Positions 12,461 through 60,979 of a DNA stretch of 64,000 nt are shown in pieces; position 1 is the stretch's first letter, and the number at the start of each line of letters is the position of its first letter. The stretch comes from Clostridia bacterium (GTDB taxonomy: Bacteria > Bacillota > Clostridia > TANB77 > RGIG9151). A program made the position numbers and the translations under genes. The stretch is taken from assembly GCA_017934955.1 (NCBI GenBank), contig JAGBIO010000024.1, positions 14,550 to 78,549 of the forward strand, read 5' to 3'. A model generated the notes under the pieces. That model was given only the letters and a program-made list of their open reading frames with translations, searched no databases and was not told the DNA's origin.

Positions 12461-12469
12461 ACAAGAGAG

Positions 12470-13861: not shown

Positions 13862-13893
13862 ACTGTAGGGGACGACGTCCTCGACGTCCCGCT
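13862..13893. repeat. REP-like hairpin, family C
   Basis: cTGTAGGGGACGACGTCCTCGACGTCCCGCTTT. Confidence 0.8.
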
Positions 13894-13971: not shown

Positions 13972-14190
13972 AGCTGTAAAAAAACTGCCTCAGGAAAATA
14001 AAATTTTCAAAACAATGACGGAGAACCGGCAAGTACAAACGGATAAGGAATGGGTAAACTCAACACGAGGTTGAGTTTAGCTTACCCCTGCCATGGACGG
14101 CAGATGTAAGCGGCCCATTCCGTTTCATTTTGTACTCCGGTTTGTAGTCCCTGTTTTGAAAATTTTATTTTCCTGAGGCAGTTTTTTACA
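13972..14190. repeat. ~210-bp element bounded by 35-40-bp perfect terminal inverted repeats with a highly structured interior (candidate MITE or structured ncRNA)
   Basis: Left arm CTGTAAAAAAACTGCCTCAGGAAAATAAAATTTTCAAAACA (13972-14012) and right arm TGTTTTGAAAATTTTATTTTCCTGAGGCAGTTTTTTACA (14148-14190) are perfect reverse complements. The interior has nested helices CCGGCAAGTACAAA/TTTGTACTCCGG and AAGGAATGGG/CCCATTCC and hairpins GGTAAACTCAACACGAGGTTGAGTTTAGC and CTGCCATGGACGGCAG. Confidence 0.5.
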
Positions 14191-14200
14191 ACCACTTCTA

Positions 14201-26323: not shown

Positions 26324-28330
26324 CTACTCTTCCTCCGCCGTCGTCTTATTCAACTCGATAAAGAACGTCGTACCCTTTCCATCCTCTGACTCAAATCGCA
26401 TATCCCCGTTAAACTTCCCTTTAATCGTAGAGTAGCACATATACAATCCCAAACCGGTTCCGTTCTTACCCTTCGACGTAACCATTTCCTTAAACAATTT
26501 ATCCTTCACATGCGGTGCAATTCCGCCGGCATAATCCTGTACTTCGATATACACTTTTTTCTCATCTTCCCGCACTCTCACATCAATATCTCCGCCTTCA
26601 TGATAAGCATCCATTGCATTAATAATCAAGTTATCCATTACCTGCACAATTGCGCTGATTTCACCCTTAATATAAGAATCCTTATTAATCTGCAAATCCA
26701 AATTCAAGTTACAATGGCGACGTTTTAACTCATTTTTCATCAAAATCTGTGTCCGAACAATCAACTCCTCCGCACTAAACTTTCCAACCGTCGAAGCATT
26801 CATCGAAACCGCTTGTCCTTTTACCGCATCAATTACCTCCGTCATATAGCTCAAGTACGGACGTATCTTCTCAATCCACTCCTTCATCTCCTGCGCAATT
26901 TGATGATGGTCTTCCTTCGTCACCTCGGAATCTTCAATCGACTCATCGTATTCCTTCACTAAATCCGTTACCCCCTCCAAAGCACCGGAAATCGACATAA
27001 TCGGAGTTTTTAAATTATGTGCAATTCCTCCGATTAATTGACCCAACGAAGACAAACGTTCCTGTTCCACCAAAATTTCCTGGTTTCGTTCTATTTTCTC
27101 TATATTATTCTTCTCCAAATCCAAAATCTTATTAAACGCCACAACCAACTCGCCGATTTCATCATTCGACGTCACAACTAACTTTTTATCGTAATCAATC
27201 GCTACTTGTTCCGAAATATTCGTCAATTTATCCGCAATCTCTGTAATATCCGAAGACATATCTTCCGCAAAGTAATACAAGATAAAAATCGCGATAGCAA
27301 ACATCAAGAAAATACTTCCAAAGAATAAGAAGACCATATTTTCCGAAGACAAATCATAACGTATTCCAATAATATACTCATCTTCCCCTAATTGAATATA
27401 CTCTGCCGTCGCCTGAATATCCGAAGCATAATAGTCATACAAATGCCCGCTATATCGTTCTCCCACCAAAAGAGCATATTTTAACAAAAACTCACTTAAA
27501 GGCTCGCCTTCGTTAAAAATCTCTTTTCCATTTTTAATCACGAAAGCAGTATCCTTCTCACTGATTTTATCAATCTTCCCAATTGCCGCAATAATGTCAC
27601 TTTCCGAATCAATCCCACTTGAAACCAGATTTGTTAAGCGAATATTATATTCATCAAATCGCATAACACCCTTTTCATGAACCAAACGCGCATACCCCAC
27701 TAACGCCAAAAACACCGAAGTTACCAAGAAAAGAGGCAAAATTTGCAGGAAAATTCTACTTTTCAAATTAAACTGCAAAAACCCTTTTTTAGCTTCCAAA
27801 TTGTTGGTTCGAATCAGTAATTTTTTCATCAATTTTTTAGTAAACACATAGGTAGTAACAGACAATAACGCCATAAAAACGAACGCCAATGCCGAAATTT
27901 TAATAATTAGGCTAAATTCCGTTTTTGTTATGTACAATACCAACGCGATAACCAACGGAACCACAAACAGCTGACAAAGATACAACACATAAGGAATCCG
28001 AAAACATCTGCCCTGCAACTGCTCAATCTCTTTCCGACTTTCCTCATCCTTCTTTTCCAATAGTCTTCCAATCTTATTAAAATCCTTTATTTGAAACCAC
28101 ACAAACAAATCCACCAGTGCCATAATTACAAGCACAATCGCAATATACTGCTTATAATAGGTCGCTCCCGCATCAATCTGTGTTTCAAAATAACTGTTAA
28201 TTACCTCCGGTCCGTAATTTAAAACGGCAGGAATTAAAAAGTAGAACCCGATTCCCAATAACAAAACAATAATGTTATAAACTTTAATCAAACCCAGTGC
28301 CTCTTTATTCTTTTTCCTCATTGGTATCAT
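26324..28330 (-). CDS. Sensor histidine kinase (multi-TM sensor, HAMP, HisKA, HATPase_c)
   Basis: 668 aa with an N-terminal multi-TM sensor region and a HAMP-like segment. H-box is LSSLGQLIGGIAHNLKTP, N/G boxes are NLIINAMDAY and GTGLGLYMCYS. Its start overlaps the NRPS stop by ~25 nt. Confidence 0.85.
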   Translation of the reverse strand: MIPMRKKNKEALGLIKVYNIIVLLLGIGFYFLIPAVLNYGPEVINSYFETQIDAGATYYKQYIAIVLVIMALVDLFVWFQIKDFNKIGRLLEKKDEESRKEIEQLQGRCFRIPYVLYLCQLFVVPLVIALVLYITKTEFSLIIKISALAFVFMALLSVTTYVFTKKLMKKLLIRTNNLEAKKGFLQFNLKSRIFLQILPLFLVTSVFLALVGYARLVHEKGVMRFDEYNIRLTNLVSSGIDSESDIIAAIGKIDKISEKDTAFVIKNGKEIFNEGEPLSEFLLKYALLVGERYSGHLYDYYASDIQATAEYIQLGEDEYIIGIRYDLSSENMVFLFFGSIFLMFAIAIFILYYFAEDMSSDITEIADKLTNISEQVAIDYDKKLVVTSNDEIGELVVAFNKILDLEKNNIEKIERNQEILVEQERLSSLGQLIGGIAHNLKTPIMSISGALEGVTDLVKEYDESIEDSEVTKEDHHQIAQEMKEWIEKIRPYLSYMTEVIDAVKGQAVSMNASTVGKFSAEELIVRTQILMKNELKRRHCNLNLDLQINKDSYIKGEISAIVQVMDNLIINAMDAYHEGGDIDVRVREDEKKVYIEVQDYAGGIAPHVKDKLFKEMVTSKGKNGTGLGLYMCYSTIKGKFNGDMRFESEDGKGTTFFIELNKTTAEEE

Positions 28331-31300
28331 CCCTTTTTACAATATAAATACTCTTTATCATATAGCAAATGATTTTCTGAATATACTCTTTATCCATCTT
28401 CGGCCATTCAAAACCGGCTAATTCCAAAAAGTGTTTCGTAATATCGCTTTCCACTAAAATATCACTGCTGTAATTAAGGTTTCCCTCTTCTCCAAGATAG
28501 ATTTGACCAACCAGCCGGTCCTTATTTCCAACATACCGAAAATCCAAATTTCCCGCTTTCACCAATTCCAAGAACCGTTTTACCGTAATCATATTGTGAT
28601 TGGTAATATGAAAAATCCTTCCCGTCGCTTCCGGAATATCAAAAGTCTTCACAATCGCTTCCGCTGACAAATCAATCGGAGAAAATTCAATCTCCTTCTC
28701 CAACAACTCATCCGAAACCTTGTTTCCTTCCAAAACCAACCGAATCGTCGCATAAAAAGCGTTTTCCTCAATATTTTTCTGGAAAACCCCATCGGAATAT
28801 CGTCCTGTCAGGTTCCCCATCCGATAAATCGTCGCCTTTAATCCCTTCTTCATTTCCGCCAAAATCAAATTCTCACTCTCAAACTTGCTTCGCACATAAA
28901 TATTATCTTGATAAGCCTGTCCGATATAAAGATCCTTCTCAGAAAAAGTTTCCTTGGTACAACGATTATCCACCAAATACTCCCCTACAACCGTAATGGT
29001 AGAAACATAATTCATCTTAATATGAAATTGCTTTGCAAATTCAACAATATTCTGTGTCCCAACCACATTTATATTTCGAATATCTTCATAATCACCGTAG
29101 TACTTCACAATCGCAGCTGAATGAATAATATTATCAATCTTTTTCCCCATTTCCTCATATAATTCATTCGAGAAACCAAGTTTTTCAAAAGAAATATTAC
29201 CATCCACCACAAAAATTCTTTTATCCAACAAATCCTTATATTTCCCATCGAAATAGAAATCCAACGTATCTTCCAAACGATGTCTCGCCTTCTGCGCCTT
29301 ATTACTCCGAACCAAACAATAAATCTTACTATCCGAATTTCTCTCTATCAGAGCCTGTAAAATATGACTTCCCAAAAATCCGGTAGAACCGGTCAATAAA
29401 ACATTTTCCGACTTTTCACGCTTTCCGGAAAGCACTTTACACTCTTCAAATTCCGGAACTTCCTGTATCTCAACTTCATCCTTTTCTTTATTCGCAAGAT
29501 TTCCCGTTATCTTATCACTTAATTCTTGAATGGTAGGATACTGATAAAAATCCTGCACTCCAATATTCCATTGATACTTCAACAAACTCGTCAGCGCCCC
29601 GATAACCTTCAATGAATCTGCACCAAGTTCAAAAATATTCTGATTAATTCCGATTTCCTTTAAATTCAATACTTTTCGGAATGTCTCTGCCAATATTTTT
29701 TGCTCCTGCGTTTGCGGTAAAATGAGTTCAACCTCCTCATCTTCCTGCACAATCTCCGGCAACTGCTTCCGATCTAACTTTCCATTCGCCGAAAGTGGCA
29801 TAGCCGGAAGCTGCATATAATAACTCGGCACCATATATTCCGGCATTTTAAGCATCAAAGACTTCTTCAATTCCTTCACATCAATCGACTTCTTCGCCAC
29901 AAAATAAGCGCACAAATTCTTAATACCGGTATTTTTATCTTCCCGTACAATAACAACCGCTTCATTAATTCCGTTAAAATCCTTAATCCGCGTCTCAATT
30001 TCCCCAATTTCAATTCGGAATCCCCGAATTTTAATTTGAAAATCAATACGTCCCATGTACTCAATATCGCCTTTCGGCATATAACGCGCCAAATCTCCCG
30101 TTTTGTACATCTTTGTTCCCGGTACAAACGGATTATCTACAAACTTCTCATCCGTCAAAGTTGGATTATTCACATAGCCTCTTGCCAAACCGTCGCCCGC
30201 AATATACAACTCTCCGATAATTCCAACCGGAAGAAGATTTTTATTACGATCCAGCACATATAACTGAATATTATCAATCGGCTTTCCAATCGGAATAATC
30301 CCGTTTGCCGGCGTCGGAGAACAATTAAAATAGGAAACATCCACCGTCGCCTCTGTCGGACCGTACAAATTCACTAGCTGCGCACCCGATTTGGTATAAA
30401 TCAAATTATTAAACTTTTTCACCTGATCCAATGTTAAAGCTTCGCCACTTGCAAACACCCATCGTAACGACGTTAGAGACTGAATATCTTTCGAAACATC
30501 CACATACTCTAAAAAAGCATTTAGCATGGAAGGCACAAAATGCATCACTGTCACATGATGTTCCTTCACCGCAGAAATAATTTTATCCGGATACTTCTGC
30601 GCCCCCGGCTCCAACATACACACTTTCGCCCCGACAAAATACCACCAAACAAGCTCCCATACCGAAACATCAAAGGTATAAGGCGTCTTCTGCAAAATAA
30701 CATCCTTCTCCGTGAGCGGATAACTTTTTTGCATCCAATGAATTCGATTAACCGCAGAATAATGCTCAATCATTGCACCCTTCGGCTTTCCGGTAGAACC
30801 CGATGTATAAATTACGTACGCCAAATTTCTTGAATGGTGCAATTTTTCTGCCTTTCGATAAGGCTCCTCTTTCAAAGCATCATTATTTACCTCAACTCTT
30901 TGAACCCCTTCTACCGTCGTTTTCACCGGTTCATGCGATAAAAAGAGCTTTGCACCGCTGTTTTCCAACATATAATTCACACGATCCATCGGGTAATCCG
31001 GATCCATCGGCATATACGCCGCACCCGCCTTATGAATCGCCAAAATTCCGATAATCATCTCTACCGAACGATACATTAACACACCAATAATATCATCCGG
31101 CTTTACTCCCAAATCTCTTAATCTCGCCGCTAATTTATCTGCCCTGTCATTTAACTCCTCATAAGTAAGCGATTTTCCCTCTGCCATCACTGCAACATTC
31201 TTCGGCGTTTTCCTCACCTGTTGCTCGAAAATCCGATCCAAAGTCATCTCCTTCGGGTACTCACAAGCCGTATCGTTAAACCCTAAAAGAATTCGATCCT

Positions 31301-32606
31301 TTTCCTTCTGCGAAACCATCTCCAAACTGCACAATTTCTTTTCGGGATTATCCAACGCATGCCACAGAAGTCGAATAATATGATCATGCAAAAACTCAAT
31401 TTCCTTCGCATAAAACATATCCTCCAAATAATCGTAGCTAACAATTAACGTTCCCTCGTTATCCCTATCATTCAAATCAATCGTCAAACTATGCGTCTGA
31501 TGTCCGTTAAAATGCCATCTCGTTGTATAAGGAACTTCCTCATCACTCGCAAACTTAGAATTTTGATACGACAAAATAATATCAAACAAAGCATCCTCCG
31601 TATCAAATTTTTCACGCAATTCTTTCTTCAAAACGTCATATGGATACTTTTGATTCCGCAAAATTCCCATCAATTCCGCTGAGAATTTTTTTGAAAAAGA
31701 TACCAGATTATCCTCCGGCTTAATTTCTGCCTTTATCGTAACGGTATTCGCAAACATCCCAATCATTTTCTTCTCACTCTGATTTCCACGATTCAAAATC
31801 AAAGTACCGAAATTAAAGCTTTCCTTCCCAATTGCACGATAAATATACATTGAAATCGCCGTCGAAAAAATAGAAAACACCGAAATATTGGTTTCTTCCG
31901 AATACTCTTTTAACTTCTTACATAATTTTTCCGGCAGAACATAGCTTTTTCGCTTCGCCGCCGTAGAAATCGTATTCGTCTTTCTCAATTTTAATTTCGC
32001 CGCCTCAAAGCCCTCCGAAAACTTATCCAACCAGTATTTTTGCGAACGCTCGTACTTTTTCGAATGATTATACTCCTCTTCCGTCTGAATATACTCCAAA
32101 TAGGACGGCGTCTCTAAATGAATCTCCTTTCCATGCAACATCGCTTTATAGCAATCAATAATCTCATTCACTGCCGTCACCATCGTCCAACCATCCGAAA
32201 TCAAATGATGCATTTTGATATAAAAAGAAATTTTTTCCTCTCTCTTCATAATCGCAAAATAAAAAAGATTATTTTCATAGATGTCAAAAGGAACCCTCGC
32301 TTGGGTTTCTTCCCATGAAAAATAATCTTCCTGTGTCTTTCCGGAAAAATCAATTACCTCGATGTCATAGTATTGATACGGCACCACAAACTGCATGGTC
32401 TCCCCATCTGCTTCCTTAAAATGAAGTCGAAAACCATCGTTTAACTCAATCACTTTATTAATTGCTTTTTTTAAAATTTCTATATCAATATCCTTCTCCA
32501 CAAAATTTACACTTCCGGCAATTACGCCCAAACTTGTTCCCGGATTAAATTTCTCCATAAAAAGCAAATTTCTCTGCGGATGCGTTAAAGAATACAATTT
32601 TTCCAT
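28305..32606 (-). CDS. Single-module nonribosomal peptide synthetase with C-A-T-R architecture (condensation, adenylation, thiolation, terminal NAD(P)H thioester reductase)
   Basis: 1433 aa. The C domain has HHLISDGWT, the A domain has YTSGSTGKPKG and YKTGDLARY plus GRIDFQIKIRGFRIEIGEIE, the PCP has FELGADSLK, and the R domain has LLTGSTGFLGSHIL (Rossmann) plus a YxxxK region. Confidence 0.9.
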   Translation of the reverse strand: MEKLYSLTHPQRNLLFMEKFNPGTSLGVIAGSVNFVEKDIDIEILKKAINKVIELNDGFRLHFKEADGETMQFVVPYQYYDIEVIDFSGKTQEDYFSWEETQARVPFDIYENNLFYFAIMKREEKISFYIKMHHLISDGWTMVTAVNEIIDCYKAMLHGKEIHLETPSYLEYIQTEEEYNHSKKYERSQKYWLDKFSEGFEAAKLKLRKTNTISTAAKRKSYVLPEKLCKKLKEYSEETNISVFSIFSTAISMYIYRAIGKESFNFGTLILNRGNQSEKKMIGMFANTVTIKAEIKPEDNLVSFSKKFSAELMGILRNQKYPYDVLKKELREKFDTEDALFDIILSYQNSKFASDEEVPYTTRWHFNGHQTHSLTIDLNDRDNEGTLIVSYDYLEDMFYAKEIEFLHDHIIRLLWHALDNPEKKLCSLEMVSQKEKDRILLGFNDTACEYPKEMTLDRIFEQQVRKTPKNVAVMAEGKSLTYEELNDRADKLAARLRDLGVKPDDIIGVLMYRSVEMIIGILAIHKAGAAYMPMDPDYPMDRVNYMLENSGAKLFLSHEPVKTTVEGVQRVEVNNDALKEEPYRKAEKLHHSRNLAYVIYTSGSTGKPKGAMIEHYSAVNRIHWMQKSYPLTEKDVILQKTPYTFDVSVWELVWWYFVGAKVCMLEPGAQKYPDKIISAVKEHHVTVMHFVPSMLNAFLEYVDVSKDIQSLTSLRWVFASGEALTLDQVKKFNNLIYTKSGAQLVNLYGPTEATVDVSYFNCSPTPANGIIPIGKPIDNIQLYVLDRNKNLLPVGIIGELYIAGDGLARGYVNNPTLTDEKFVDNPFVPGTKMYKTGDLARYMPKGDIEYMGRIDFQIKIRGFRIEIGEIETRIKDFNGINEAVVIVREDKNTGIKNLCAYFVAKKSIDVKELKKSLMLKMPEYMVPSYYMQLPAMPLSANGKLDRKQLPEIVQEDEEVELILPQTQEQKILAETFRKVLNLKEIGINQNIFELGADSLKVIGALTSLLKYQWNIGVQDFYQYPTIQELSDKITGNLANKEKDEVEIQEVPEFEECKVLSGKREKSENVLLTGSTGFLGSHILQALIERNSDSKIYCLVRSNKAQKARHRLEDTLDFYFDGKYKDLLDKRIFVVDGNISFEKLGFSNELYEEMGKKIDNIIHSAAIVKYYGDYEDIRNINVVGTQNIVEFAKQFHIKMNYVSTITVVGEYLVDNRCTKETFSEKDLYIGQAYQDNIYVRSKFESENLILAEMKKGLKATIYRMGNLTGRYSDGVFQKNIEENAFYATIRLVLEGNKVSDELLEKEIEFSPIDLSAEAIVKTFDIPEATGRIFHITNHNMITVKRFLELVKAGNLDFRYVGNKDRLVGQIYLGEEGNLNYSSDILVESDITKHFLELAGFEWPKMDKEYIQKIICYMIKSIYIVKRDDTNEEKE

Positions 32607-32934: not shown

Positions 32935-33060
32935 TAAAAATGGCACAAACACTGTAGGGACAGCATTCATGCTGTCCTGCATTCCGCATTTTCTGCGGAC
33001 AGCATGAATGCTGTCCCTACAAGGCTTTAGTGCAAATAATAAGTTGTTAAGTCTAACCAG
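32935..33060. mobile_element. MITE-like REPIN element (family A)
   Basis: CTGTAGGGACAGCATTCATGCTGTCC...GCGGACAGCATGAATGCTGTCCCTACAAGG...TTAAGTCTAACCAGTAAC. Confidence 0.7.
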
Positions 33061-33065
33061 TAACA

Positions 33066-33130
33066 AAGGGGCTGTAAAAAACACCTCGGGAAAATAAAAT
33101 TTTTCCGAGGTGTTTTTTACAGCCCCTTTC
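33066..33130. terminator. Bidirectional rho-independent terminator between convergent genes
   Basis: Perfect 24-bp stem AAAGGGGCTGTAAAAAACACCTCGG / CCGAGGTGTTTTTTACAGCCCCTT around an A/T loop, with T-runs on both strands. Confidence 0.6.
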
Positions 33131-35861: not shown

Positions 35862-35929
35862 AATCTCATCTCCCTCCTTGTTACAATTTAGATTATAAAT
35901 TATAAAAATGGCACAATCTCTGTACGGAC

Positions 35930-36100
35930 ACAATTCATTGTGTCCTAATTCTAATGTCTACCTATTTTCCGGCCATAAAAATGGCACAAACACTGTAGGG
36001 ACACAATTCATTGTGTCCTAATTCTAATGCCTACCTATTTGGGCATAATAATGACACAATCATTGTAGGGACAGCATTTATGCTGTCCTTTCTATCTATT
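35930..36100. repeat. Three tandem REP-like hairpins (two family B, one family A) in direct orientation
   Basis: CTGTACGGACACAATTCATTGTGTCC, CTGTAGGGACACAATTCATTGTGTCC and ATTGTAGGGACAGCATTTATGCTGTCC, each followed by a similar ~35-bp tail (TAATTCTAATG.CTACCTATTT..GGCCATAA). Confidence 0.8.
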
Positions 36101-36107
36101 TTTCCCA

Positions 36108-36836
36108 TTATAATCTCGTTACAAAAATTCCCGCCAAAAAGCCAACCATATAACACATCACCGGCATTCTTCCTCTATAAAGCCGATTCGACTCCGGCAG
36201 TAATTCGCCACTCACCACATACATCATTGCACCTCCCGCAAAACCAAGAGAAAGCGCAATCATTTCTGCTGAAATATTGCCCAACACACTCCCCATCACA
36301 GCACCTATACCGGTCGGCAATCCCGACAAAAACGCCAATGCAACAGCCTTTCCGAAACCCATTCCCGACTTTCGCAAAGGAAGTGTAATCGCAATTCCCT
36401 CCGGTACATCATGTAGGGCAATCACTAATGCCAAGGTCAACCCCAATTTCACCGAACTTCCAAATCCCGCTCCAATGGCAAGCCCTTCCGGCAAATTGTG
36501 TAGCATAATCCCAATAAAAACAAGGAACCCTGTCTTCGCTAACCTTGACTCCGCAAACCTTCTTGAAAAACACTTCATCACTGTTTCCGTCACACATAAT
36601 AACACCACACCAAGCATAAAGCCCGCAAGCGTCATCTGAATTCCCGAAAGAAAAAAGCCCTCCGGTAACAAATCAAAACACACCACAGCCGTCATAATTC
36701 CGGCAGCCAACTCCAAGAATATACTCGAAAGTTTATTGGAAGATTCCTTCATAAAACACCCCAATAAACCTCCCAATGTAGTTCCAAAAACACCTGTCAA
36801 AGTTCCAAAAACAGCAATAAACGTAAAATTCTCCAT
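36108..36836 (-). CDS. ZIP-family (ZupT-like) divalent metal/zinc permease
   Basis: Multi-TM protein with ZIP signature motifs HNLPEGLAIGAGF and HDVPEGIAI. The start is placed at MENFTF, downstream of a REP hairpin. Confidence 0.75.
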   Translation of the reverse strand: MENFTFIAVFGTLTGVFGTTLGGLLGCFMKESSNKLSSIFLELAAGIMTAVVCFDLLPEGFFLSGIQMTLAGFMLGVVLLCVTETVMKCFSRRFAESRLAKTGFLVFIGIMLHNLPEGLAIGAGFGSSVKLGLTLALVIALHDVPEGIAITLPLRKSGMGFGKAVALAFLSGLPTGIGAVMGSVLGNISAEMIALSLGFAGGAMMYVVSGELLPESNRLYRGRMPVMCYMVGFLAGIFVTRL

Positions 36837-36867
36837 TCGCAACTCTTTTCTCGAAATTGCTATCCAA

Positions 36868-36900
36868 AACATCCGTACGGACACAATTTATTGTGTCCTG
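36868..36900. repeat. REP-like hairpin, family B
   Basis: CCGTACGGACACAATTTATTGTGTCC. Confidence 0.8.
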
Positions 36901-36978: not shown

Positions 36979-38043
36979 TTACGAATTACTGCTATTCGAC
37001 AATTTAATCGCTCTATCCGCCGTAATCAAAGCATCAATCATCTCGTCCAAATCACCATCGGTAAAATTCTCCAACTGATAAATACTGTAATTAATTCTAT
37101 GATCCGTAATTCTTCCCTGCGGATAATTGTAGGTACGAATTTTCTCACTTCTGTCTCCCGTTCCCACCTGCATCTTTCTGTCATTTGCCATCTTCCGCAT
37201 ACGCTCTTCTTCCTGTTGTTCAAATAACTTCGCACGAAGCATCGTCATCGCACGCTCTCTGTTTTGAATCTGAGAACGCTCTTCCTGACAAGCCACCACA
37301 ATTCCCGTCGGAATATGCGTAATACGAATTGCCGACTCCGTCTTGTTAACATGCTGTCCACCCGCACCACTCGAACGATACGTATCCACCTTCAAATCTG
37401 CCGGATTAATCTGAATATCCACATCCTCCAACTCCGGTAAAACTGCAACCGTAACGGTAGAAGTATGAATTCTTCCGTTTGTCTCCGTCTCCGGCACACG
37501 CTGTACTCTATGTACACCGCTTTCAAACTTCAAACGGCTGTACGCACCCTTTCCGGTAATCATAAAGCTAACTTCTTTATATCCTCCAAGACCGGTCGGA
37601 TTCTCATTCAAGATTTCAACCTTCCATCTCTTTCGTTCTGCATATCTTGAAAACATACGGAATAAAGTACCCGCAAATAAAGCCGCCTCTTCTCCGCCGG
37701 CACCCCCTCTGATTTCTACGATAATGTTCTTATCATCGTTCGGATCCTTCGGAAGAAGTAAAATCTTCAAATCCTCCTCAATTGCCAAAAGTTTCTCTTC
37801 TCCCGTCACAATCTCCATCTGTGCAAGTTCATGCAATTCCTTATCATTTAGCATTTCCTTTGCACTTTCAATATCCGCGCTCACTTTCTTAAACTCTCTG
37901 TATTTATTCACAACATCCTCAATATCCGCTCTTTCCTTCATCAGCTTCTGCCAAACCTCTTGATTTGCAATCACTTCCGGCTTGCTGATTTCCTCCGTAA
38001 GCTCATTAAAACGATCCTCCACCGCTTTCAATTTACTAAACAT
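36979..38043 (-). CDS. prfA: Peptide chain release factor 1
   Basis: GGQ motif ([16 protein letters not shown]). The PET tripeptide ([14 protein letters not shown]) is RF1-type PxT rather than RF2 SPF, and the N-terminus is [15 protein letters not shown]. Confidence 0.85.
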
Positions 38044-38164
38044 TCTATCCATCCTTTCCAATCATATTCCAATACATTATTTTATCACAAAAGCCAACAC
38101 ATTTCCACACTTCTACATAAAATTTTAACAATAAGTGTTACAGGTCAAAATTAAAATCGCCACA

Positions 38165-38402
38165 AATATATTGTAGGGTCACAATTCATGCTATCCTGCC
38201 TTTCTGTCTTTTCTGTGGACAGCATAAATGCTGTCCCTACACCATTTGTGCCATTTTCTACATTTGAAAAATACAGGCGTACGGACAGCATTCATGCTGT
38301 CCTATTTTCCAACATTCGCTCATTTCCCGGACACAATGAATTGTGTCCCTACGGCGATTGTGCCATTATTGTAGGGGACGGCGTCCTCGACGTCCCGATA
38401 TA
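38165..38402. repeat. Cluster of five REP-like hairpins mixing stem families A, B, C and a hybrid
   Basis: ATTGTAGGGTCACAATTCATGCTATCC (a decayed A/B hybrid), GGACAGCATAAATGCTGTCCCTACA, CGTACGGACAGCATTCATGCTGTCC, CGGACACAATGAATTGTGTCCCTACGG and TTGTAGGGGACGGCGTCCTCGACGTCCCG. Confidence 0.8.
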
Positions 38403-38433
38403 TTTGCACCAATTTAAATTGAATATACATCCC

Positions 38434-40254
38434 TTACTCAATCCACATTTTATGCGCCTTCCGAATCTCTAATCCCCGCATCTGTAAAAATTCCTGTATC
38501 TTCTTCTCCTCTAACGCCCGCTTCACCTTCAGCGTCGTCGTCTTTATCAATTCATTTTTACTAAATAACACATACCGTATAATCTTGTACTTCGGAATCG
38601 TCTCGTTCATATGCCGAATCGCCTCTTCCACAGCCTCTGCTTTCGAAGCCTCCTCTAAAACAAGCTCTGCACAAATCTGCACATCATTATCCTTCGTCTT
38701 ATACCCCCAAACAAACGACTCCTTCACCCCCGGAATCGCATTAATCAACTCCTCGTACTCCTCCGGAAACGCCTTTTTCCCGTTATATAACACAATCATC
38801 GACTTCTCACGACCGGTAATTTTCAAATTTCCGGTTTCATCAATCACACCCAAATCTCCCGTCTTAAACCAACCATCCTCGGTAAACGCTTCCTTTGTCT
38901 CCTCCGGCGAATCAAAATATCCCTTTGTCACGTTTTTTCCCTTCACATAAATCTCACCGATACCCTCTTGATCCGGTGAATCAATCGTAATCTCTACATC
39001 CTTCACAGGACAGCCAACCGTCCCCGCCGGATTCTTTCCCGGGACTGTCGCACAAATCAACGGAGAAGTTTCTGTCAAACCATACCCCTGCAAAAACAAG
39101 ATTCCCAAACTCTCAAAATACTCAATAATCTCCTTCCGTATCGGTGCCGCACCGCTCGCCATCAACCGCAACTTCGGAGAAATTTTCTTACGCACCGGCG
39201 CCATAATCCACCTTCTCAAATCCAAATGCAACCTCAAGAAAAACGATGACAATGCCATCAACCGATTCACACTGTTCTCTTTTCCAGACTTCTTAATCTC
39301 CGTCCGAATTCGATTATATAACGTCTCAAAAATCGCCGGTACCGCCACCAATACACTCACTTGGAACTCTTTCATGTTATCCGAAATATGTTTAATTCCC
39401 TCACAATAAGAAATACACACGCCGGAATAAAACATAAATAAAAATCCTAACGTATTCTCAAACGTATGATGAAGCGGTAACAAAGACAAATGAACATCCT
39501 TTTCCTTCGCACGAATCAAAGCAGAACACGAAAACAAATTCGACAAAATATTTCTTTGCGAAAGCAAAACTCCCTTTGAACGTTTCGTCGTACCCGAAGT
39601 AAACAGCAAAACACTCGTCTCCTCCGGATTTACCTCCGCTTTAAGAAACGTTTTATGCCCTGCCTCCAAGCGAGCCTTCCCCTTCTCCATATACTCTTTT
39701 AACACCTTAATCTTAGAATTTTTCTCTGTCTCAATCTCATCAAAACAAATATATTGTTTTAACTTCGTATTTGTTCCCGCCATTTTCTCCATAATCTCTT
39801 TATAATTCTTACTAAAGAAAATCGCCTCACAACCGCTTCTCTCAATTAAATTGGTAATCTCCCCCTCCGGAAGATGCTTATCCAAAGGAACCACAACCCC
39901 CGTTCCGGCAGTTACCGCCATATAAGCCAAACTCCACTCGTAACGATTTTCACTGATAATCGCTATTTTTTTATTTTTTAAATCATTCGCACAAAGTTCC
40001 GTCCCCAAACAATCCACATCTTCCGCAAAATCCGAATAACTCTTTCGAATTGTTTTTCGATTTCGTTTATACAAAAACGCCGTCTTTTCTTGATACTTAT
40101 TTTGGGCATAACGAATTAGGGATTTAAAATCCTTAATTTTCTCCGGAATCTTTACTTCAAGATCTCCCAAACCTCTAATAATCTTTCTTCCGTTCTCCTG
40201 ATAAATTTCTGCATTTTTTCTCATAACGAACCTCCGTTCAATATTCTCTGCCAA
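38434..40254 (-). CDS. Long-chain fatty-acid--CoA ligase (AMP-dependent synthetase/ligase, FadD/LcfA-like)
   Basis: 606 aa with AMP-binding motifs LLFTSGTTKRSKGVLLS, GYGLTETS and WFKTGDLGVIDETGNLKITGREKS. Confidence 0.8.
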   Translation of the reverse strand: MAENIERRFVMRKNAEIYQENGRKIIRGLGDLEVKIPEKIKDFKSLIRYAQNKYQEKTAFLYKRNRKTIRKSYSDFAEDVDCLGTELCANDLKNKKIAIISENRYEWSLAYMAVTAGTGVVVPLDKHLPEGEITNLIERSGCEAIFFSKNYKEIMEKMAGTNTKLKQYICFDEIETEKNSKIKVLKEYMEKGKARLEAGHKTFLKAEVNPEETSVLLFTSGTTKRSKGVLLSQRNILSNLFSCSALIRAKEKDVHLSLLPLHHTFENTLGFLFMFYSGVCISYCEGIKHISDNMKEFQVSVLVAVPAIFETLYNRIRTEIKKSGKENSVNRLMALSSFFLRLHLDLRRWIMAPVRKKISPKLRLMASGAAPIRKEIIEYFESLGILFLQGYGLTETSPLICATVPGKNPAGTVGCPVKDVEITIDSPDQEGIGEIYVKGKNVTKGYFDSPEETKEAFTEDGWFKTGDLGVIDETGNLKITGREKSMIVLYNGKKAFPEEYEELINAIPGVKESFVWGYKTKDNDVQICAELVLEEASKAEAVEEAIRHMNETIPKYKIIRYVLFSKNELIKTTTLKVKRALEEKKIQEFLQMRGLEIRKAHKMWIE

Positions 40255-40952: not shown

Positions 40953-41125
40953 ATGTAGGGGCGAGCACTGCTCGCCCGTTTTTCGGTGTATAGGCAAAAT
41001 CTTTGATTTTGCCTATACACCGAAAAACGCTCCGCGAGGATGCACACTCGTGCGCAAGGAAAGTTGCTACGCAACTCGCACTCGGCGCAGGTGCTTTGCC
41101 TACGCAAAGCACTTTTGTTCCACAA
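40953..41125. repeat. Family-D REP hairpin fused to copy 2 of the ~140-bp composite repeat (family E, inverted relative to copy 1)
   Basis: ATGTAGGGGCGAGCACTGCTCGCCC is followed by TTTTTCGGTGTATAGGCAAAATCTTTGATTTTGCCTATACACCGAAAAA...GTTGCTACGCAACTCGC...GCCTACGCAAAGCACTTTTGTTCC, the reverse complement of the 12470-12610 element at ~85-90% identity. Confidence 0.75.
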
Positions 41126-46112: not shown

Positions 46113-46400
46113 TAAAGAAAAGTGTTTTGCGTAGGTTACAGGTCAGACTCAACCTTTATATGTACCTTAAATGTTTCTCAATCTATTGTAGGGACAGCAT
46201 TTATGCTGTCCTGCTTTTCCGCCTTTTCTGCGGACAGCATGGCACTCAAAGCTTCCCAAGAACGTAGTGATTGGCTGGTTTCGACTGCGCCGCGAGTTGC
46301 GTAGCAACATTCCTTTCGCGTGAGTGTGCTTCCCCGCAGAGCGTTTTTAGTTGTATAGGAAAATCAAAGATTTTGCCTATATAACTAAAAACACTGTCAA
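46113..46400. repeat. Copy 3 of the ~140-bp composite repeat (family E), interrupted by a degenerate MITE-like family-A REPIN
   Basis: AAAAGTGTTTTGCG at 46113-46126 and TGCGCCGCGAGTTGCGTAGCAACATTCC...TGTATAGGAAAATCAAAGATTTTGCCTATATAAC at 46290-46400 match the ends of copy 1. Between them lies TAGGTTACAGGTCAGACTCAACC...ATTGTAGGGACAGCATTTATGCTGTCC...GCGGACAGCATG|GCACTC, a MITE left end plus a truncated second hairpin. Confidence 0.7.
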
Positions 46401-50339: not shown

Positions 50340-50476
50340 CAGAATGTGGTTTGTAGGGACACAATTTATTGTGTCCTAATTCTAAGCATCTGCCTATTTC
50401 CGGACACAATAAATTGTGTCCCTACAGTGTTTGTGCCGTCATTGTAGGGGACGGTGTCCTCGACGTCCCGATATAT
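50340..50476. repeat. Family-B REPIN (inverted doublet) plus a family-C REP hairpin
   Basis: TTGTAGGGACACAATTTATTGTGTCC (50351-50376) and CGGACACAATAAATTGTGTCCCTACAG (50401-50427) are in inverted orientation, followed by ATTGTAGGGGACGGTGTCCTCGACGTCCCG (50441-50470). Confidence 0.8.
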
Positions 50477-56402: not shown

Positions 56403-57461
56403 TTACACTTCCTTCTCTATATAGAAACTTTTTACCTCTTTCCCGATCAATTCATCCGTACAGGTAATCAACACCTGACAGTTTTTTAGCTTTTCATATA
56501 AAAATTCTCTTCTTTCTCGATCTAACTCTGACATGACATCATCCAATAATAAAACCGGCATTTCTCCCTTTTCTTGAAAAACCAAATCTTTTTCTGCCAA
56601 TTTTAATGCCAACACAGCCGTCCGAATCTGCCCCTGCGAACCAAAGTTTCCTAACGGCATCTCATTAATGCTCATCAAATAGTCATCCCGATGAATCCCC
56701 ACCGATGTAAAACCACGAAAAATATCCTTTTCCCTTTTCGATTTTATTAACGCCAAACATTCCTCTTCGCGATCCGGAATCTGCGTCTTATAGACAAGCT
56801 GTACATCCTCTTTCTTTTCCGACATTTGTAAATGATAATCTTGAAACAGCGGAGAAATTTTTTGAATATTCTCCTCACGAATTTTTTTAATTCTTATATT
56901 CGCCATCGCCAACTTCTCATCCCAAATATCCGCTTCTAAAGACGGAAGGTGTTCCCTTTTTGTTTTTAATAAATTATTTTTCTGTTCCAAAATTTTATAA
57001 TATTCCTGTAAAACGTAGATGTATCCCGGGTTTAACTGACTAATTAAAAGATCAAAATTCTTTCTTCTCTCCCCCGGATCCCCTTTCACAAAATTCAAAG
57101 TTTCCGGAGAAAACAAAACAATCAATATATTTCCAAACAAAGCACTTAGCTTCTGTTGCTTAATATCGTTAATTTTTACTTGTTTCTTTCCATTCTCGGA
57201 AAGAACGATATTCACTCGTTTTTTGCGATCTTTCAGCGAAGCTTCTACCGTAACCGAAGCAAACTCCTGCCCCTTTTTTACTAATTCCGAGTCTTTTCTG
57301 GTACGAAAAGAACGGCCTATTGCAGATAAATAGACCGCTTCTAATATATTTGTCTTTCCTTGTGCATTATTTCCCCAGAAAACATTCGTTTTAGGAGACA
57401 ATTCCATTCTTTTTTCCGAATAACTTCTGTAATTTTTTAATTCAATTGTATCAATAATCAC
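56403..57461 (-). CDS. recF: DNA replication and repair protein RecF
   Basis: 352 aa with Walker A GNNAQGKTN (MIIDTIELKNYRSY...) and a C-terminal ABC-type signature/Walker B region. It is positioned after dnaN. Confidence 0.9.
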   Translation of the reverse strand: MIIDTIELKNYRSYSEKRMELSPKTNVFWGNNAQGKTNILEAVYLSAIGRSFRTRKDSELVKKGQEFASVTVEASLKDRKKRVNIVLSENGKKQVKINDIKQQKLSALFGNILIVLFSPETLNFVKGDPGERRKNFDLLISQLNPGYIYVLQEYYKILEQKNNLLKTKREHLPSLEADIWDEKLAMANIRIKKIREENIQKISPLFQDYHLQMSEKKEDVQLVYKTQIPDREEECLALIKSKREKDIFRGFTSVGIHRDDYLMSINEMPLGNFGSQGQIRTAVLALKLAEKDLVFQEKGEMPVLLLDDVMSELDRERREFLYEKLKNCQVLITCTDELIGKEVKSFYIEKEV

Positions 57462-57514
57462 AAAAAGATACCTCCATCAAATTCGCGATACATCAACGTT
57501 TGCAGTAAAAGGTA

Positions 57515-58615
57515 CTAAATTCTTACCGGCAAAATCATATAAGTATATTCTTCCCCTTCCAACGGACGCATAATACAAGGAGAAATGGAAGAACCGAAAT
57601 CCAAGCTAATCGTTTTATCATCAATTGCCTTTACCGCTTCAATTAAATACTTCGGATTAAAGCCGATTTCCAAATTCTTTCCGATGCTTTCTACTACAAC
57701 TTCCTCTCGAACATCTCCTGATTGAACCGCACATTGAATTACCATTAAAGAATCCGCAATGGTAATTTTAATCGGGAATTGCTTATCATCTCGTGACATA
57801 ACAGCCGCTCTTTCCAAAGAACTTAACAATACATTACGATCTACCGTTACACGTAATTCCTTCTCCTTCGGAATCGCTTGTCTGTAATCCAAAAATTCAC
57901 CTTCCAAGACACGTGTTACTGCCTTACAATTTGACATTTCAAACAAACCTTGATTCTTTTCCACACCGATCGTAATAGGCTCATCCGAATCTTGTAGAAT
58001 CTTGGAAATCTCCGTTAAGGTTCTTCCCGGAATAATTGCCTTAAAATCAGCTGTACTTTCTTCTTCCAAGTGTTTGGTTTGTAATGCAAGACGAAATCCG
58101 TCCAACGCAACCATATTTAAAACATTTCCGTTTTTCTCAATTAAACACCCAGTAAAAACCGGTCTGGTTTCATCAATTCCAACCGCAAAAATCGTTTTAC
58201 GAATCATATCTTTTAAAATATTTTGACTGATTTTTAACGATTGTTCCGCATTAATTTCCGGTAAAACAGGAAAATCTCCGCTATCTACCGTAACCACCTT
58301 AAATAATGAACCTTCACACTCTATAATCAGTAAATTTTGCTCATTCGTTGAAATCTCAATACTGCTATCCGGCAATTTTCGAATAATCTCAGAAAACATC
58401 TTGGCATCCACTGTAGCTTCTCCTACTTCACTGATTTCCGCATCTAAATAATACTCAATTCCCAAATCCAAATCCGTTGCGGTTATAATCACCATACTTT
58501 CTTTTGCTTCTAAATGAAAGCACTCCAACATCGGCATAGTAGTTTTTCCTGCTACTGCCTTTTGTGCTGCATTAATACCAACCAATAGTTTCTCTTTTTC
58601 CACTGAAAACTTCAT
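57515..58615 (-). CDS. dnaN: DNA polymerase III beta sliding clamp
   Basis: 366 aa with the three-domain clamp fold (MKFSVEKEKLLVGINAAQKAV...). It lies immediately downstream of dnaA. Confidence 0.9.
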   Translation of the reverse strand: MKFSVEKEKLLVGINAAQKAVAGKTTMPMLECFHLEAKESMVIITATDLDLGIEYYLDAEISEVGEATVDAKMFSEIIRKLPDSSIEISTNEQNLLIIECEGSLFKVVTVDSGDFPVLPEINAEQSLKISQNILKDMIRKTIFAVGIDETRPVFTGCLIEKNGNVLNMVALDGFRLALQTKHLEEESTADFKAIIPGRTLTEISKILQDSDEPITIGVEKNQGLFEMSNCKAVTRVLEGEFLDYRQAIPKEKELRVTVDRNVLLSSLERAAVMSRDDKQFPIKITIADSLMVIQCAVQSGDVREEVVVESIGKNLEIGFNPKYLIEAVKAIDDKTISLDFGSSISPCIMRPLEGEEYTYMILPVRI

Positions 58616-58682
58616 AATATACCTCCTGTTTTATATAAATTCTTTTATTAGAACTATTATTGATAGGCTGCATTAAATATTT

Positions 58683-58752
58683 TTGTAGGGTCAGCATTCA
58701 TGCTGTCCTGCTTTCTGCCTATTCTGTGGACAGCATAAATGCTGTCCCTACA
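58683..58752. repeat. Family-A REPIN inside the dnaA-dnaN intergenic (oriC) region
   Basis: TTGTAGGGTCAGCATTCATGCTGTCC...TGTGGACAGCATAAATGCTGTCCCTACACC. Confidence 0.8.
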
Positions 58753-58789
58753 CCAATATTTGATTTTTAGGTTTACTCTTTTGTTCTAA

Positions 58790-59100
58790 ATTGAAAAAAT
58801 CTTCTTTTTTTATTTTAAATAAATATTATTAAGTATTAATAGTATTAGTAATGTGAATTATGTGGATAACTGCAATTTTCCAACCTATCAGCAAAATTTG
58901 AACGTGGAAAAAATGAGAATAACTTTTCAAAATTTATCCACAAAGAATTTTAACATTGTGAAAAACTTTTTATTAACAAGTTTTCAACTCCCCATTCACA
59001 CCCAAATGTGGATAACCTGAAAATCAAATTATTCGCAGTTTACAGATTGCAGGAACCGCATAAAATCACGTTTTTTGCTATTGTGGAAACTGTGGATAAA
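58790..59100. other. oriC (dnaA-dnaN intergenic part): AT-rich DNA-unwinding element plus at least 4 DnaA boxes
   Basis: An AT-rich ~60-bp tract at 58795-58855 (TTTTTTTATTTTAAATAAATATTATTAAGTATTAATAGTATTAGTAATG). DnaA boxes TGTGGATAA at 58862, TTATCCACA at 58935, TGTGGATAA at 59007, TGTGGAAAC and TGTGGATAA at 59082-59099. Confidence 0.8.
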
Positions 59101-59107
59101 AATCCTC

Positions 59108-60442
59108 TTAATACAATAAGTTCTTTTTTATTTCATCAATGGTATTTTTTAATTCTTTTTTCTCGTTAATATCCTTTGAAATCTTATTGCAAGCGTGGAT
59201 TACCGTTGTATGATCTCTTTTGCCGAATTCAAATCCGATTTTCGGTAAAGATAAGTTTGCCACTTCTCGGCAAAGATACATGGCAATTTGTCTTGGATAG
59301 GCAATATCCGCGTTTCTCTTTACTCCTTTTAAATCTTCCACTTTGATATTAAAGTATTTTGCAACGACATCTTGAATCAAATCAATCGTAATGTTCTTAG
59401 TTTTTATATTTGTAATATCTTTTAATGCTTGCATCGCAATCTCTAACGTAACCGGTTCATTATTTAAATGTGCCAACGCTAAAATTTTATTTAACGCACC
59501 TTCCAATTCACGAATATTGGTATCGATTCTCTCTGCGATAAATGCGTTAATTTCATCCGGCACTTCAATACGATCCAACTGTGCTTTCTTTCTTAAAATT
59601 GCAATTCGAGTTTCGTAATCCGGCGTTTGAACGTCAGCTGTTAAGCCCCATTCAAAACGAGAACGTAAACGATCTTCCAACGGTTCAATATCCTTTGGCG
59701 GACGATCGCTGGAGATAATAATCTGTTTATTGGCTTCATAAAGAGCATTAAAGGTGTGGAAAAATTCTTCCTGTGTTCCCTCTTTTCCTGCAATAAATTG
59801 AATATCATCCACCAATAGTACATCTACATTACGATACCGATTTCGAAACGCGTTATTTCCTTCCGTCGCTTGTTCCTTAATGGCGTTGATAAAATCATTC
59901 GTAAATTTTTCAGATGTGATATAAAGAATCTTTTGACTTGGGTTTTGTTGTAAAATGTAGTGTCCGATTGCGTGCATCAAATGGGTTTTGCCAAGTCCCA
60001 CACCGCCATATAAGAACAGCGGGTTGTACGCTTTTGCAGGTGCTTCCGCTACCGCTAAAGAAGCTGCATGTGCAAAGCGGTTGTTATTACCTACCACAAA
60101 ATTTTCAAATATGTAACGCGGGTTTAATCCGGTAGAACTTTGGTCGGCCGGTTTCACACCCGGCATTTTTGTTTCAACTTCTTTTTTTGCTTCATCCGGA
60201 ATGAGATATTTTATTTCATAATCCTGATTGGTAACAAATTTAACGGTATTTTTCAATAAGTCATGAAATCTTGACTGAATGTTTGTCCTATGAAAATCAG
60301 ACGGAACTTGAATAAAAAATGAATTATTTTCCACATAAAGCGGTTTCAAATCCGCAATCCAAGTATTAAAGCTGATTGCCGTTACTTCTCCTTTTAAACA
60401 GTCTAATATTTTTTCCCAATCGGATTGTAAAATTTGTGACAT
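59108..60442 (-). CDS. dnaA: Chromosomal replication initiator protein DnaA
   Basis: 444 aa with AAA+ Walker A GGVGLGKTHL and a C-terminal DnaA-box-binding HTH. It is flanked by DnaA-box clusters. Confidence 0.95.
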   Translation of the reverse strand: MSQILQSDWEKILDCLKGEVTAISFNTWIADLKPLYVENNSFFIQVPSDFHRTNIQSRFHDLLKNTVKFVTNQDYEIKYLIPDEAKKEVETKMPGVKPADQSSTGLNPRYIFENFVVGNNNRFAHAASLAVAEAPAKAYNPLFLYGGVGLGKTHLMHAIGHYILQQNPSQKILYITSEKFTNDFINAIKEQATEGNNAFRNRYRNVDVLLVDDIQFIAGKEGTQEEFFHTFNALYEANKQIIISSDRPPKDIEPLEDRLRSRFEWGLTADVQTPDYETRIAILRKKAQLDRIEVPDEINAFIAERIDTNIRELEGALNKILALAHLNNEPVTLEIAMQALKDITNIKTKNITIDLIQDVVAKYFNIKVEDLKGVKRNADIAYPRQIAMYLCREVANLSLPKIGFEFGKRDHTTVIHACNKISKDINEKKELKNTIDEIKKNLLY

Positions 60443-60544
60443 TTTAATCCCCTTCCAAAAAAAAGTTTAAATATTAAAAATTTTTACAATAAAAAAACTT
60501 CAAAGCCTTATTATGAATAAATTGCATCGATATTGGAAAAACTA

Positions 60545-60750
60545 TTAAGTTATCCACAATTTTATCCACAAGTGTTGATAACGCATAAACAAAAGCTTTG
60601 AAATTTTATCTTTCGTGAAATATAGTATTAGACGTTGTTAATTAAATGTTGATAAAATCAATTAAATACTAAGCAAATACAATATATCAGAAAATTTACG
60701 GGTTTTCAATATAAATGTGGATAAAAATTTAAATATCCACAGAACTTTTG
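60545..60750. promoter_or_regulatory. oriC / dnaA promoter region: upstream DnaA-box cluster
   Basis: TTATCCACA at 60553 and 60566, TGTTGATAA at 60579, TGTGGATAA at 60716 and ATATCCACA at 60737. Confidence 0.8.
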
Positions 60751-60892
60751 TTCGAACACTATTGACGACTAAACAATTATGATATAAAATCCGATATAGC
60801 GGAAGCCGAATAATATTTGAATAATAATTATGATGTAAAAAATTATGTTATATAAGATTATTATTACTATTTTGGACTTTGTCGAAGGTTAA

Positions 60893-60922
60893 TTGTAGGG
60901 GGCGGCGTCCTCGACGCCCCGA
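60893..60922. repeat. REP-like hairpin, family C variant (GTAGGGGGCGGCGTCCTCGACGCCCC)
   Basis: Compared with GGGACG...CGTCCC elsewhere, the outer stem carries compensatory changes (GGGGCG...CGCCCC). Confidence 0.8.
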
Positions 60923-60979
60923 AATTGAGCCATAATCTAATTCGTAAATAAATACAAATACAGAAAGGAAACAAAGAAG

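Follow-up and report, generated by a model that had tools for sequence, protein, structure and literature searches.

The 64,000-nt stretch of DNA analyzed here (the window) covers positions 14,550 to 78,549 of contig JAGBIO010000024.1 from the Clostridia bacterium assembly GCA_017934955.1. It is low in GC (~38%), shows a strong negative GC skew and carries most of its genes on the minus strand; these include genes for SpoIIR, release factor 1 (RF-1), DnaA, DnaN and RecF, indicating a spore-forming, uncultured member of the Clostridia and a segment that contains the replication origin (near 60.5 kb). Over 14 kb the window matches a metagenome scaffold (ENA ERZ28655052) at 100% identity. At 38165-38402, between the stop of an AMP-binding CoA-ligase gene (38434-40254, minus strand) and prfA (36979-38061, minus strand), lies a cluster of five hairpin units, arranged as two head-to-head dimers and one single unit of the type designated C below. 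The second dimer (38279-38352) joins an A to a B unit over a 26-nt spacer. We describe the population to which these hairpins belong, repetitive extragenic palindromes (REPs) marked by a GTAG tag, and the class of enzyme that may have copied them.

Approximate matching to four consensus sequences identified 40 copies of REP-like GC-rich hairpins in the window (about 21 of family A, nine of B, eight of C and two of D; Table 1), or roughly one copy per 1.6 kb. All are intergenic, spread over 20 spacers, with none inside a long open reading frame (ORF). In each unit, a 5' GTA(G/C) tag precedes a GC-rich stem of 8-9 bp that is closed by a loop of 2-4 nt. Hairpins with a GTA[G/C] tag and an 8-bp stem numbered 37, whereas 200 surrogates gave 1.5 on average and never more than 6; the signal is not due to chance. 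The hairpins listed in a preliminary description of this sequence are present at their positions. TGTAGG occurs 37 times, compared with 15.2 +/- 3.9 in shuffled sequences, and among the 56 GC-rich hairpins of the window the tetranucleotide most often found in front is GTAG (18; GTAC, 8). Perfect stems of 9 bp closed by a 2-nt loop number 27 in the window, and the single-stranded DNA (ssDNA) fold of the cluster has a z-score of -7.6. The leader, of which TGTAG(G) had been called the only invariant part, is conserved rather than invariant: it reads GTAG in 28 copies, GTAC in nine (22%) and something else in three (953, 1056, 2444), and the base 5' of it is T, C or G. A short stem-loop palindrome, a tag, high copy number at extragenic sites and compensatory stems (below) are all found together, and by their sequence the elements are GTAG-type REPs.

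Searches of Rfam with the REPs and the cluster returned no family, only far-sub-threshold miRNA-precursor matches of the sort typical for any hairpin; a literature search with the stem sequence returned nothing but primers, and a scan of Joint Genome Institute (JGI) metagenomes with the lineage-specific A/B pattern matched a single unrelated contig of 28% GC. Other identities were rejected. A phage origin is at odds with two REP matches among 2.9 million viral contigs; a CRISPR array does not fit units that occur in both orientations, at irregular spacing and over 20 spacers, with 'spacers' that are themselves repeated; and intrinsic terminators fail since, at the minus-strand genes that border most copies, CTACA or A-rich sequence comes after the hairpin instead of a U-run. 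Terminator-like matches on the plus strand are few, the chief one being the D unit at 40959 after spoIIR.

The stems fall into four families. Those of A (GGACAGCAT, right arm ATGCTGTCC) and B (GGACACAAT, right arm ATTGTGTCC) have nine pairs each and loops that, read in the orientation of the tag, are TY (TC or TT). Family C (GGGACGGCG-TCCT-CGACGTCCC) has a 4-nt loop and forms eight of nine pairs, with a conserved G.A mismatch at pair 7, whereas D (GGGCGAGC, right arm GCTCGCCC) is an 8-bp stem with a 3-nt loop (AYT) and not a 9/9 arrangement. A and B differ at two of nine stem positions, both compensated, and have all four foot pairs, GGAC/GTCC, fixed; C can be read as G-GGAC-GGCG/CGAC-GTCC-C, that is, G + GGAC..GTCC + C. 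Because a GG(A/G)C foot is common to families A to D, the four are not the unrelated classes that the preliminary description had proposed. The families themselves are real, but D (11125, 40959) lies outside the cluster. Of the loop changes reported (TC, AA, TT and GA), TC and TT hold, while 'AA' and 'GA' are the TT and TC of copies on the opposite strand.

For family C, covariation was tested on copies picked by sequence similarity, not by pairing. These carry three double-sided changes compared with 0.4 in shuffles (1/500); with the structure slid, no double-sided change is seen, and the mismatch at pair 7 is kept in six of seven sequences. The C variants cited as examples exist, at 22889 (GGTACGGCG..CGACGTACC), 22945 on the minus strand (GGGTCGGCG..CGACGACCC) and 60899 (GGGGCGGCG..CGACGCCCC). 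Variants of A and B within the window (2600, 58689, 953) are single-sided and uncompensated, so that the proposed joint change of both arms applies to C but not within A or B.

Joint change is also seen across genomes. In a scan of one genome per species, at least 90 loci matched GTAGGGACAGCAT-NN-ATGCTGTCC, the listed loci coming from Chloroflexota/Anaerolineae, rumen and gut Clostridia and metagenome-assembled genomes (MAGs) of Bacteroidota; in 90 listed loci GTAG is the commonest tetranucleotide before hairpins (276 of 1756 directly adjacent and a further 243 offset by one base). Matches in the listed loci and the window (21 genomes, three phyla) were anchored on GTAS-GGAC-N12-GTCC only, which leaves the inner 5+5 positions free. 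All five inner pairs form in 190 of the 254 anchored matches and four in 45, with at least 15 distinct inner stems. Among 75 distinct sequences, 94.1% of cells are paired (76.9% in shuffles), double-sided changes number 118 against 40 (0/500 shuffles), and the covariation score is 0.447, compared with 0.147 for shuffled sequences and at most 0.138 for slid structures. One other genome has seven copies of a wobble stem, GTGAT/ATCGC, and loops vary between genomes. Across the 21 genomes, then, the inner pairs covary: the distal stem drifts by compensation, with no change in the tag or in the four foot pairs. To regard the stem sequence as irrelevant is thus an overstatement, the GGAC/GTCC foot being fixed in A and B.

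The cluster itself is an insertion. The ligase-prfA spacer measures 372 nt in the window and 87-95 nt in sister species, and alignment shows that ~300 nt of 38133-38432 are absent from sister loci L093, L094 and L096, as a single clean insertion beside which the prfA promoter TGTGATAAAAT is retained intact. The sister species, whose RF-1 is 94% (L093-95) and 90% (L096-98) identical to that of the window, are nearly free of REPs: over the syntenic ~20 kb the window has 13 (38177 included), five sister loci have none and one has two, both with the compensated variant stem GGTCAGCAT/ATGCTGACC. Moreover, among the 30 A and B copies, 27 carry stems that are perfect and identical in sequence, a sign of recent copying. 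Judged by these comparisons, the REP population appears to have expanded recently in the lineage of the window. The C unit at 13865-13890 has an ortholog in a 97.5%-identical strain that differs at 6 of 26 nt.

At least nine head-to-head dimers, two of them in the cluster, have spacers of 19-26 nt and can be aligned with one another; for the nine A or B dimers of the left replichore, the alignment takes in the spacer TGCTTTTCTGCCTTTTCTGT and ~40 nt of flank. The spacer is strand-asymmetric, T/C-rich on one strand, and the dimer therefore has a polarity. Several A dimers are enclosed by 18-nt outer inverted repeats (GTTACTGATCAGACTTAA / TTAAGTCTGAATAGTAAC), forming a composite of ~150 nt. The organization is that of bacterial interspersed mosaic elements (BIMEs) or of REP doublets forming hairpins (REPINs). 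All nine left-replichore dimers share one polarity, and the only dimer found to the right of oriC (L103 16473-16640) is inverted; a single C unit shows no flip across oriC. The unpaired copies of the window are strongly biased, 11 of 12 having their GTAG strand on the C-rich (plus) strand, the lagging-strand sequence. For 20 other genomes, the counts are 41 with the GTAG strand on the strand that is locally rich in C and 17 with it on the other, and orientation is unbiased with respect to flanking genes (9 opposite, 12 same). An orientation bias linked to replication is tentatively suggested.

Genes for REP-associated tyrosine transposases (RAYTs, or TnpA-REP) adjoin the same core in other genomes. 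Searches over the window and all loci matched only in L070 and L073. In L070, a Muribaculum MAG, GTAGGGACAGCAT REPs lie on both sides of a 173-aa RAYT ORF (2081-2599); the region 5' of this gene (1700-2080) comprises about seven tandem units of ~60 nt, each holding a GGACGCCAT-NN-ATGGCGTCC-CTAC REP, in a BIME-like arrangement. In L073, a Clostridia MAG, a RAYT homolog stands beside three stems, GGGCGGCAT, GGACAGCAT and GGGACGCAT. The core GTAG-GGACAGCAT-NN-ATGCTGTCC, identical to that of window family A, directly adjoins the RAYT genes of both loci, though the two proteins are only 32% identical over 88 residues. In L100/L101, a GTAG-GGACGAGGC REP, with a stem of the related GTAG-GGAC type in L100, lies 45 nt upstream of a RAYT homolog and a second REP lies within the gene; REPs inside the RAYT gene occur in L100 and L073.

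Proteins of the L070, L073 and L100 type align to Escherichia coli TnpA-REP (PDB 4ER8) over the HUH and Tyr blocks. All 32 sampled homologs matched the NCBIfam model REP_Tyr_transpos (best E-value 3.5e-20), a profile of the homologs matched 4ER8 alone in the PDB (1.6e-8; single-sequence E-value 0.0076), and several of the homologs are labeled RayT by JGI. Their consensus contains MPNHFHAI, WQSRY and YIxNNV, with H75, H77, W135 and Y156 invariant. RAYT subclass 2.4 is marked by NH[IFV]H, WQ and YIxNNP, a length of ~190 aa, GGG-foot and double-foot REPs, and REPs within the tnpA gene (PMC6006769). Because the NHFH, WQ and YIxNN motifs, the GGG-foot and double-foot REPs and the in-gene REPs correspond to that description, the RAYTs beside the REP core can be assigned, by sequence features, to subclass 2.4 (Bertels group 4), with the P of YIxNNP replaced by V.

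We therefore favor, with a probability of about 0.8, the explanation that the cluster consists of GTAG-tagged REPs, mostly in REPIN- or BIME-like dimers, belonging to a large, recently expanded population copied by RAYT/TnpA-REP. A REP unit on ssDNA would fold into a hairpin. Its tag, stem foot and shape would be bound by a RAYT/TnpA-REP protein of the HUH/Y1 class, most likely one from subclass 2.4 (Bertels group 4), which would cut and rejoin beside the hairpin and so copy units and dimers into intergenic DNA. With shape and foot outweighing the distal stem, pairs there could drift by compensation and give rise to sub-families A to D. TnpA-REP requires GTAG and reads it together with the shape of the hairpin, and complement-swapped stems work while mismatches harm (Corneloup et al. 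2021, PMC8266576). The mechanism put forward in the preliminary description, in which a RAYT-like enzyme reads tag plus structure, is accordingly right in kind and already established, given this biochemistry and the earlier descriptions of GTAG repeats; the RAYT genes beside the same core elsewhere and the covarying inner pairs agree with it, whereas the fixed stem foot and the lack of a RAYT gene in the window limit it.

Several observations weigh against this explanation. No RAYT ORF was found among the six-frame ORFs of the window, whether the query was E. coli YafM or the L070 RAYT (phmmer) or a hidden Markov model of 74 homologs, and none was found in the same-strain scaffolds L091 and L103 (retrieved by rpsF and pcrA look-up, respectively) or in the sister-species loci; the same-strain sequence searched amounts to ~75 kb, that is, the window and ~9-10 kb past its right end (L103). 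The RAYT matches to curated models fall below the cut-offs of those models, and the taxon labels of the other genomes are MAG-derived. GTAC, present in 9 of 40 copies, abolishes or retargets cleavage in tested systems (PMC8266576), and the strand bias of the unpaired copies is opposite to the IS200/IS608 precedent (PMC3971601). We infer that a RAYT encoded elsewhere in the genome acts on these copies.

As to the number of enzymes, we lean towards a single RAYT of relaxed specificity, because the RAYT of L070 occurs with two stem types and that of L073 with three, and because the cluster contains an A/B heterodimer. A dedicated RAYT for each stem family, with several co-existing REPtrons, is a serious but less favored possibility: it would follow the rule of one RAYT per REP family in Pseudomonas (PMC3116915, PMC2817692) and would suit C and D, which loop length, foot and a conserved mismatch set apart from A and B. 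It sits poorly with single RAYT genes flanked by two or three stem types, with the A/B heterodimer (38279-38352) and the A/B chimera (38177) of the cluster, and with a difference of only two pairs between A and B; moreover, two REPIN families sharing one RAYT have been proposed earlier (bioRxiv 10.1101/2021.07.10.451892).

A host function, such as termination, protection of mRNA 3' ends or protein binding, could also retain the hairpins, in which case the covariation would reflect selection on RNA or DNA structure. The intergenic position of all copies, mostly 3' of genes, would be consistent with this, as would the tolerated G.T wobbles (953, 50448, and the seven GTGAT/ATCGC copies) and the few terminator-like plus-strand copies such as that after spoIIR. 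We consider it unlikely as the main explanation, since the hairpins of the dominant minus-strand genes are not followed by a U-run, the same spacers are REP-free in sister species, and both the conserved unpaired GTAG tag and the link to RAYTs would be left unexplained. As a secondary role it is compatible with copying by a RAYT.

Two further accounts are more improbable still. The copies might be orphans, spread by a RAYT since lost and persisting passively while they decay, as the lack of a RAYT in ~75 kb of same-strain sequence, the 12 of 40 non-GTAG leaders, the decayed or chimeric copies at 38177, 2600, 58689 and 46231 and the divergence of the orthologous C copy between 97.5%-identical strains would suggest; however, the identical perfect stems of 27 of 30 A and B copies argue for recent copying, the burst postdates the divergence from the species whose RF-1 is 90-94% identical, and ~75 kb is a small fraction of a genome. 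[quoted passage not shown]

Table 1. REP units and associated elements of the 64-kb window.
Position	Strand	Feature	Details
953-1075		Three REPs	B (953-972, minus; leader GCAG, G.T wobble); B (1001-1024, plus; GTAC); A (1052-1075, plus; GTGC)
2444-2619	+	Three A REPs	2444-2463 (leader lost); 2520-2543 (GTAC); 2596-2619 (GTAC, one stem mismatch)
4127-4156		'Double-foot' A REP	TTGTAG-GGACAGCAT-AA-ATGCTGTCC-CTACAA
4168-4191		A REP	GTAC leader; neighbor of double-foot copy
8227-8409		C REP and A head-to-head dimer	C 8227-8252 (plus); A 8343-8366 (plus) / 8386-8409 (minus)
11121-11143	+	D REP	GTAG-GGGCGAGC-ATT-GCTCGCCC
12310-12462	+	~150-nt composite	18-nt outer inverted repeats at 12310-12327 and 12445-12462
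12354-12377, 12397-12420	+, -	A head-to-head dimer	Inside the 12310-12462 composite
13865-13890	+	C REP	GGGACGACG variant
17368-17592		Two A head-to-head dimers	Tandem duplication (17368-17435, 17525-17592); left members GTAC
22885-22970		C head-to-head dimer	Both members compensated: GGTACG/CGTACC, GGGTCG/CGACCC
32954-33020		A head-to-head dimer	
35922-36088	+	Three REPs, same orientation	B (35922-35945, GTAC); B (35995-36018); A (36065-36088)
36875-36898	+	B REP	Leader GTAC; in the spacer of prfA and the ZIP transporter gene
38133-38432		Inserted block	Two head-to-head REP dimers and a C REP; defined by sister-locus alignment
38173-38196	+	Decayed A/B chimera, dimer 1 left	GTAG + GGTCACAAT-TC-ATGCTATCC; B-like left arm, A-like right arm, 5/9 pairs
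38217-38240	-	A REP, dimer 1 right	GTAG-GGACAGCAT-TT-ATGCTGTCC
38279-38302	+	A REP, dimer 2 left	GTAC leader
38329-38352	-	B REP, dimer 2 right	GTAG-GGACACAAT-TC-ATTGTGTCC
38371-38396	+	C REP	GTAG-GGGACGGCG-TCCT-CGACGTCCC; conserved G.A mismatch at pair 7
40955-40977	+	D REP	GTAG-GGGCGAGC-ACT-GCTCGCCC, then GTTTTT; terminator-like, immediately 3' of spoIIR
46188-46240	+	A REP and truncated partner	A 46188-46211; partner GGACAGCATGG...
50353-50469		B head-to-head dimer and C REP	B 50353-50376 (plus) / 50402-50425 (minus); C 50444-50469 (T.G wobble)
58685-58751		A head-to-head dimer	dnaA-dnaN spacer; left arm with one uncompensated change (GGTCAGCAT)
60895-60920	+	C REP	Compensated GGGGCG/CGCCCC; dnaA-pcrA spacer, putative oriC

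The term 'double foot' used in Table 1 is defined in PMC6006769. The origin region (56403-63235) encodes recF, dnaN and dnaA on the minus strand and pcrA on the plus strand, with a change in the sign of the GC skew at ~60.5 kb and a DnaA box (TTATCCACA) near 60570; REPs occupy both spacers in which origin elements are usually found, an A dimer between dnaA and dnaN and a C unit 5' of dnaA. The ZIP zinc-transporter gene (36108-36884, minus strand) between prfA and znuA, present in L096-98 and absent from L093-95, is bracketed by B and A REPs in the window. A 1433-aa ORF at 28305-32606 (minus strand) is kept in the 94% sister species and not in the loci of the 90% sister; the sister ortholog is annotated with Condensation, AMP-binding, PP-binding and NAD-binding domains, as in a single-module reductase resembling a nonribosomal peptide synthetase.

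A second repeat family of ~140 nt occurs at 12475-12610 (plus), 40977-41115 (minus) and 46280-46395 (plus, partial). It has a terminal near-perfect hairpin of 23-25 bp (TGTATAGGCAAAATC-ttt-GATTTTGCCTATACA) and a smaller one, GTGYTTTGC-N4-GCAAARCAC, corresponds to no Rfam family, and in every copy adjoins a REP, either the D unit of 40959 or an A dimer (12354, 46188). The sole Rfam match at gathering score is a TwoAYGGAY RNA (RF01731, 50.6 bits; 14016-14150, plus), inside a ~215-nt block (13976-14192) with ~35-bp inverted ends (GTTGTAAAAAACTGCCTCAGGAAAATAAAATTTTC...). This block is absent from the 97.5%-identical strain (L092), where a terminator-like hairpin is found instead, and a 31-bp-stem hairpin at 33065-33129 has an arm, GCTGTAAAAAACACCTCGGGAAAAT, resembling the ends of the block; the TwoAYGGAY motif may ride on a MITE-like mobile element.

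The population resembles several known systems. With the subclass 2.4 REPs (Quentin et al. 2018, PMC6006769) it shares a GT[AG]G tag, long perfect stems, a G-C-rich foot (GGG...CCC in C and D) and the double-foot form GTAG...CTAC (4127-4156), and the RAYTs of the other genomes share the NH[IFV]H, WQ and YIxNN motifs, in-gene REPs (L100, L073) and a scattered distribution over several phyla. [quoted passage not shown] As in the REP/BIME and TnpA-REP system of E. coli (group 2, 4ER8), the units have GTAG at the 5' foot of an ssDNA hairpin, form inverted dimers with short linkers and are extragenic and of high copy number, and the conserved mismatch of family C is reminiscent of the bulge that E. 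coli REPs require; the stems of A, B and D are, in contrast, perfect and shorter, the loops span 2-4 nt, and the RAYT clade has only the HUH, WQ and Y blocks in common with 4ER8. As in the REPIN-RAYT system of Pseudomonas (Bertels and Rainey 2011), an inverted pair of extragenic REPs plus spacer seems to be the replicating unit, several families co-exist in a genome and near-identical copies suggest a master sequence, but the window dimer is polar owing to its asymmetric spacer, several dimers lie in a ~150-nt palindromic element, and close sister species lack the population, in contrast to the long conservation of REPINs in Pseudomonas.

The population also resembles the GTAG super-family (Di Nocera et al. 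2013, PMC3733652), with its GTAG tag, 6-13-bp stems, TY loops, sub-families arising by complementary substitution, several families per genome and mostly head-to-head dimers, some in longer palindromes (Anabaena GTAG-15). In the 2013 survey, GTAG repeats were confined to Proteobacteria, Cyanobacteria, Chloroflexi and the Planctomycetes-Verrucomicrobia-Chlamydiae (PVC) group, with none reported from Firmicutes or Bacteroidetes; the window and the loci of the other genomes extend this range to Clostridia and Bacteroidota. Similarly, the subterminal hairpins of IS200/IS605 elements have a 5' guide tetranucleotide, a Y1 HUH enzyme acting on ssDNA and a replication-linked orientation bias; unlike them, the units described here are 24-26 nt long, enclose no transposase between hairpins and show a bias that is apparently opposite, with the tag strand on the lagging-strand sequence.

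The less familiar aspects are the Clostridia host, the density of copies, the recency of the burst and the identity of the core across phyla: the commonest GTAG-GGAC stem is identical in Chloroflexota, Bacteroidota and Bacillota, beside RAYTs that are ~32% identical. To our knowledge, studies of REPs and RAYTs have dealt almost wholly with Proteobacteria, and we know of no subclass 2.4 RAYT that has been characterized biochemically. A bolder proposal, which we regard as doubtful, is that a very recent burst of GTAG REP/REPIN-like elements reaching oriC in a member of the Clostridia belongs to a cross-phylum GTAG-GGAC-N3-AT... super-family whose strand bias is the reverse of that of IS200/IS605. 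If true, this would point to a different source of ssDNA or to selective loss of the copies exposed on the lagging-strand template.

On the practical side, the same-strain scaffold L091 ends at 17413, inside the duplicated REP dimers (17368-17592), indicating that REPs fragment assemblies of the window organism and that REP clusters break its metagenome scaffolds. Dense young REPs beside REP-poor sister species offer a natural before/after comparison of a genome invasion, covering its intergenic effects, including those at the replication origin, and the origin of stem sub-families. Finally, the cross-phylum GTAG-GGAC core provides a concrete substrate for tests of the specificity of subclass 2.4 RAYTs.

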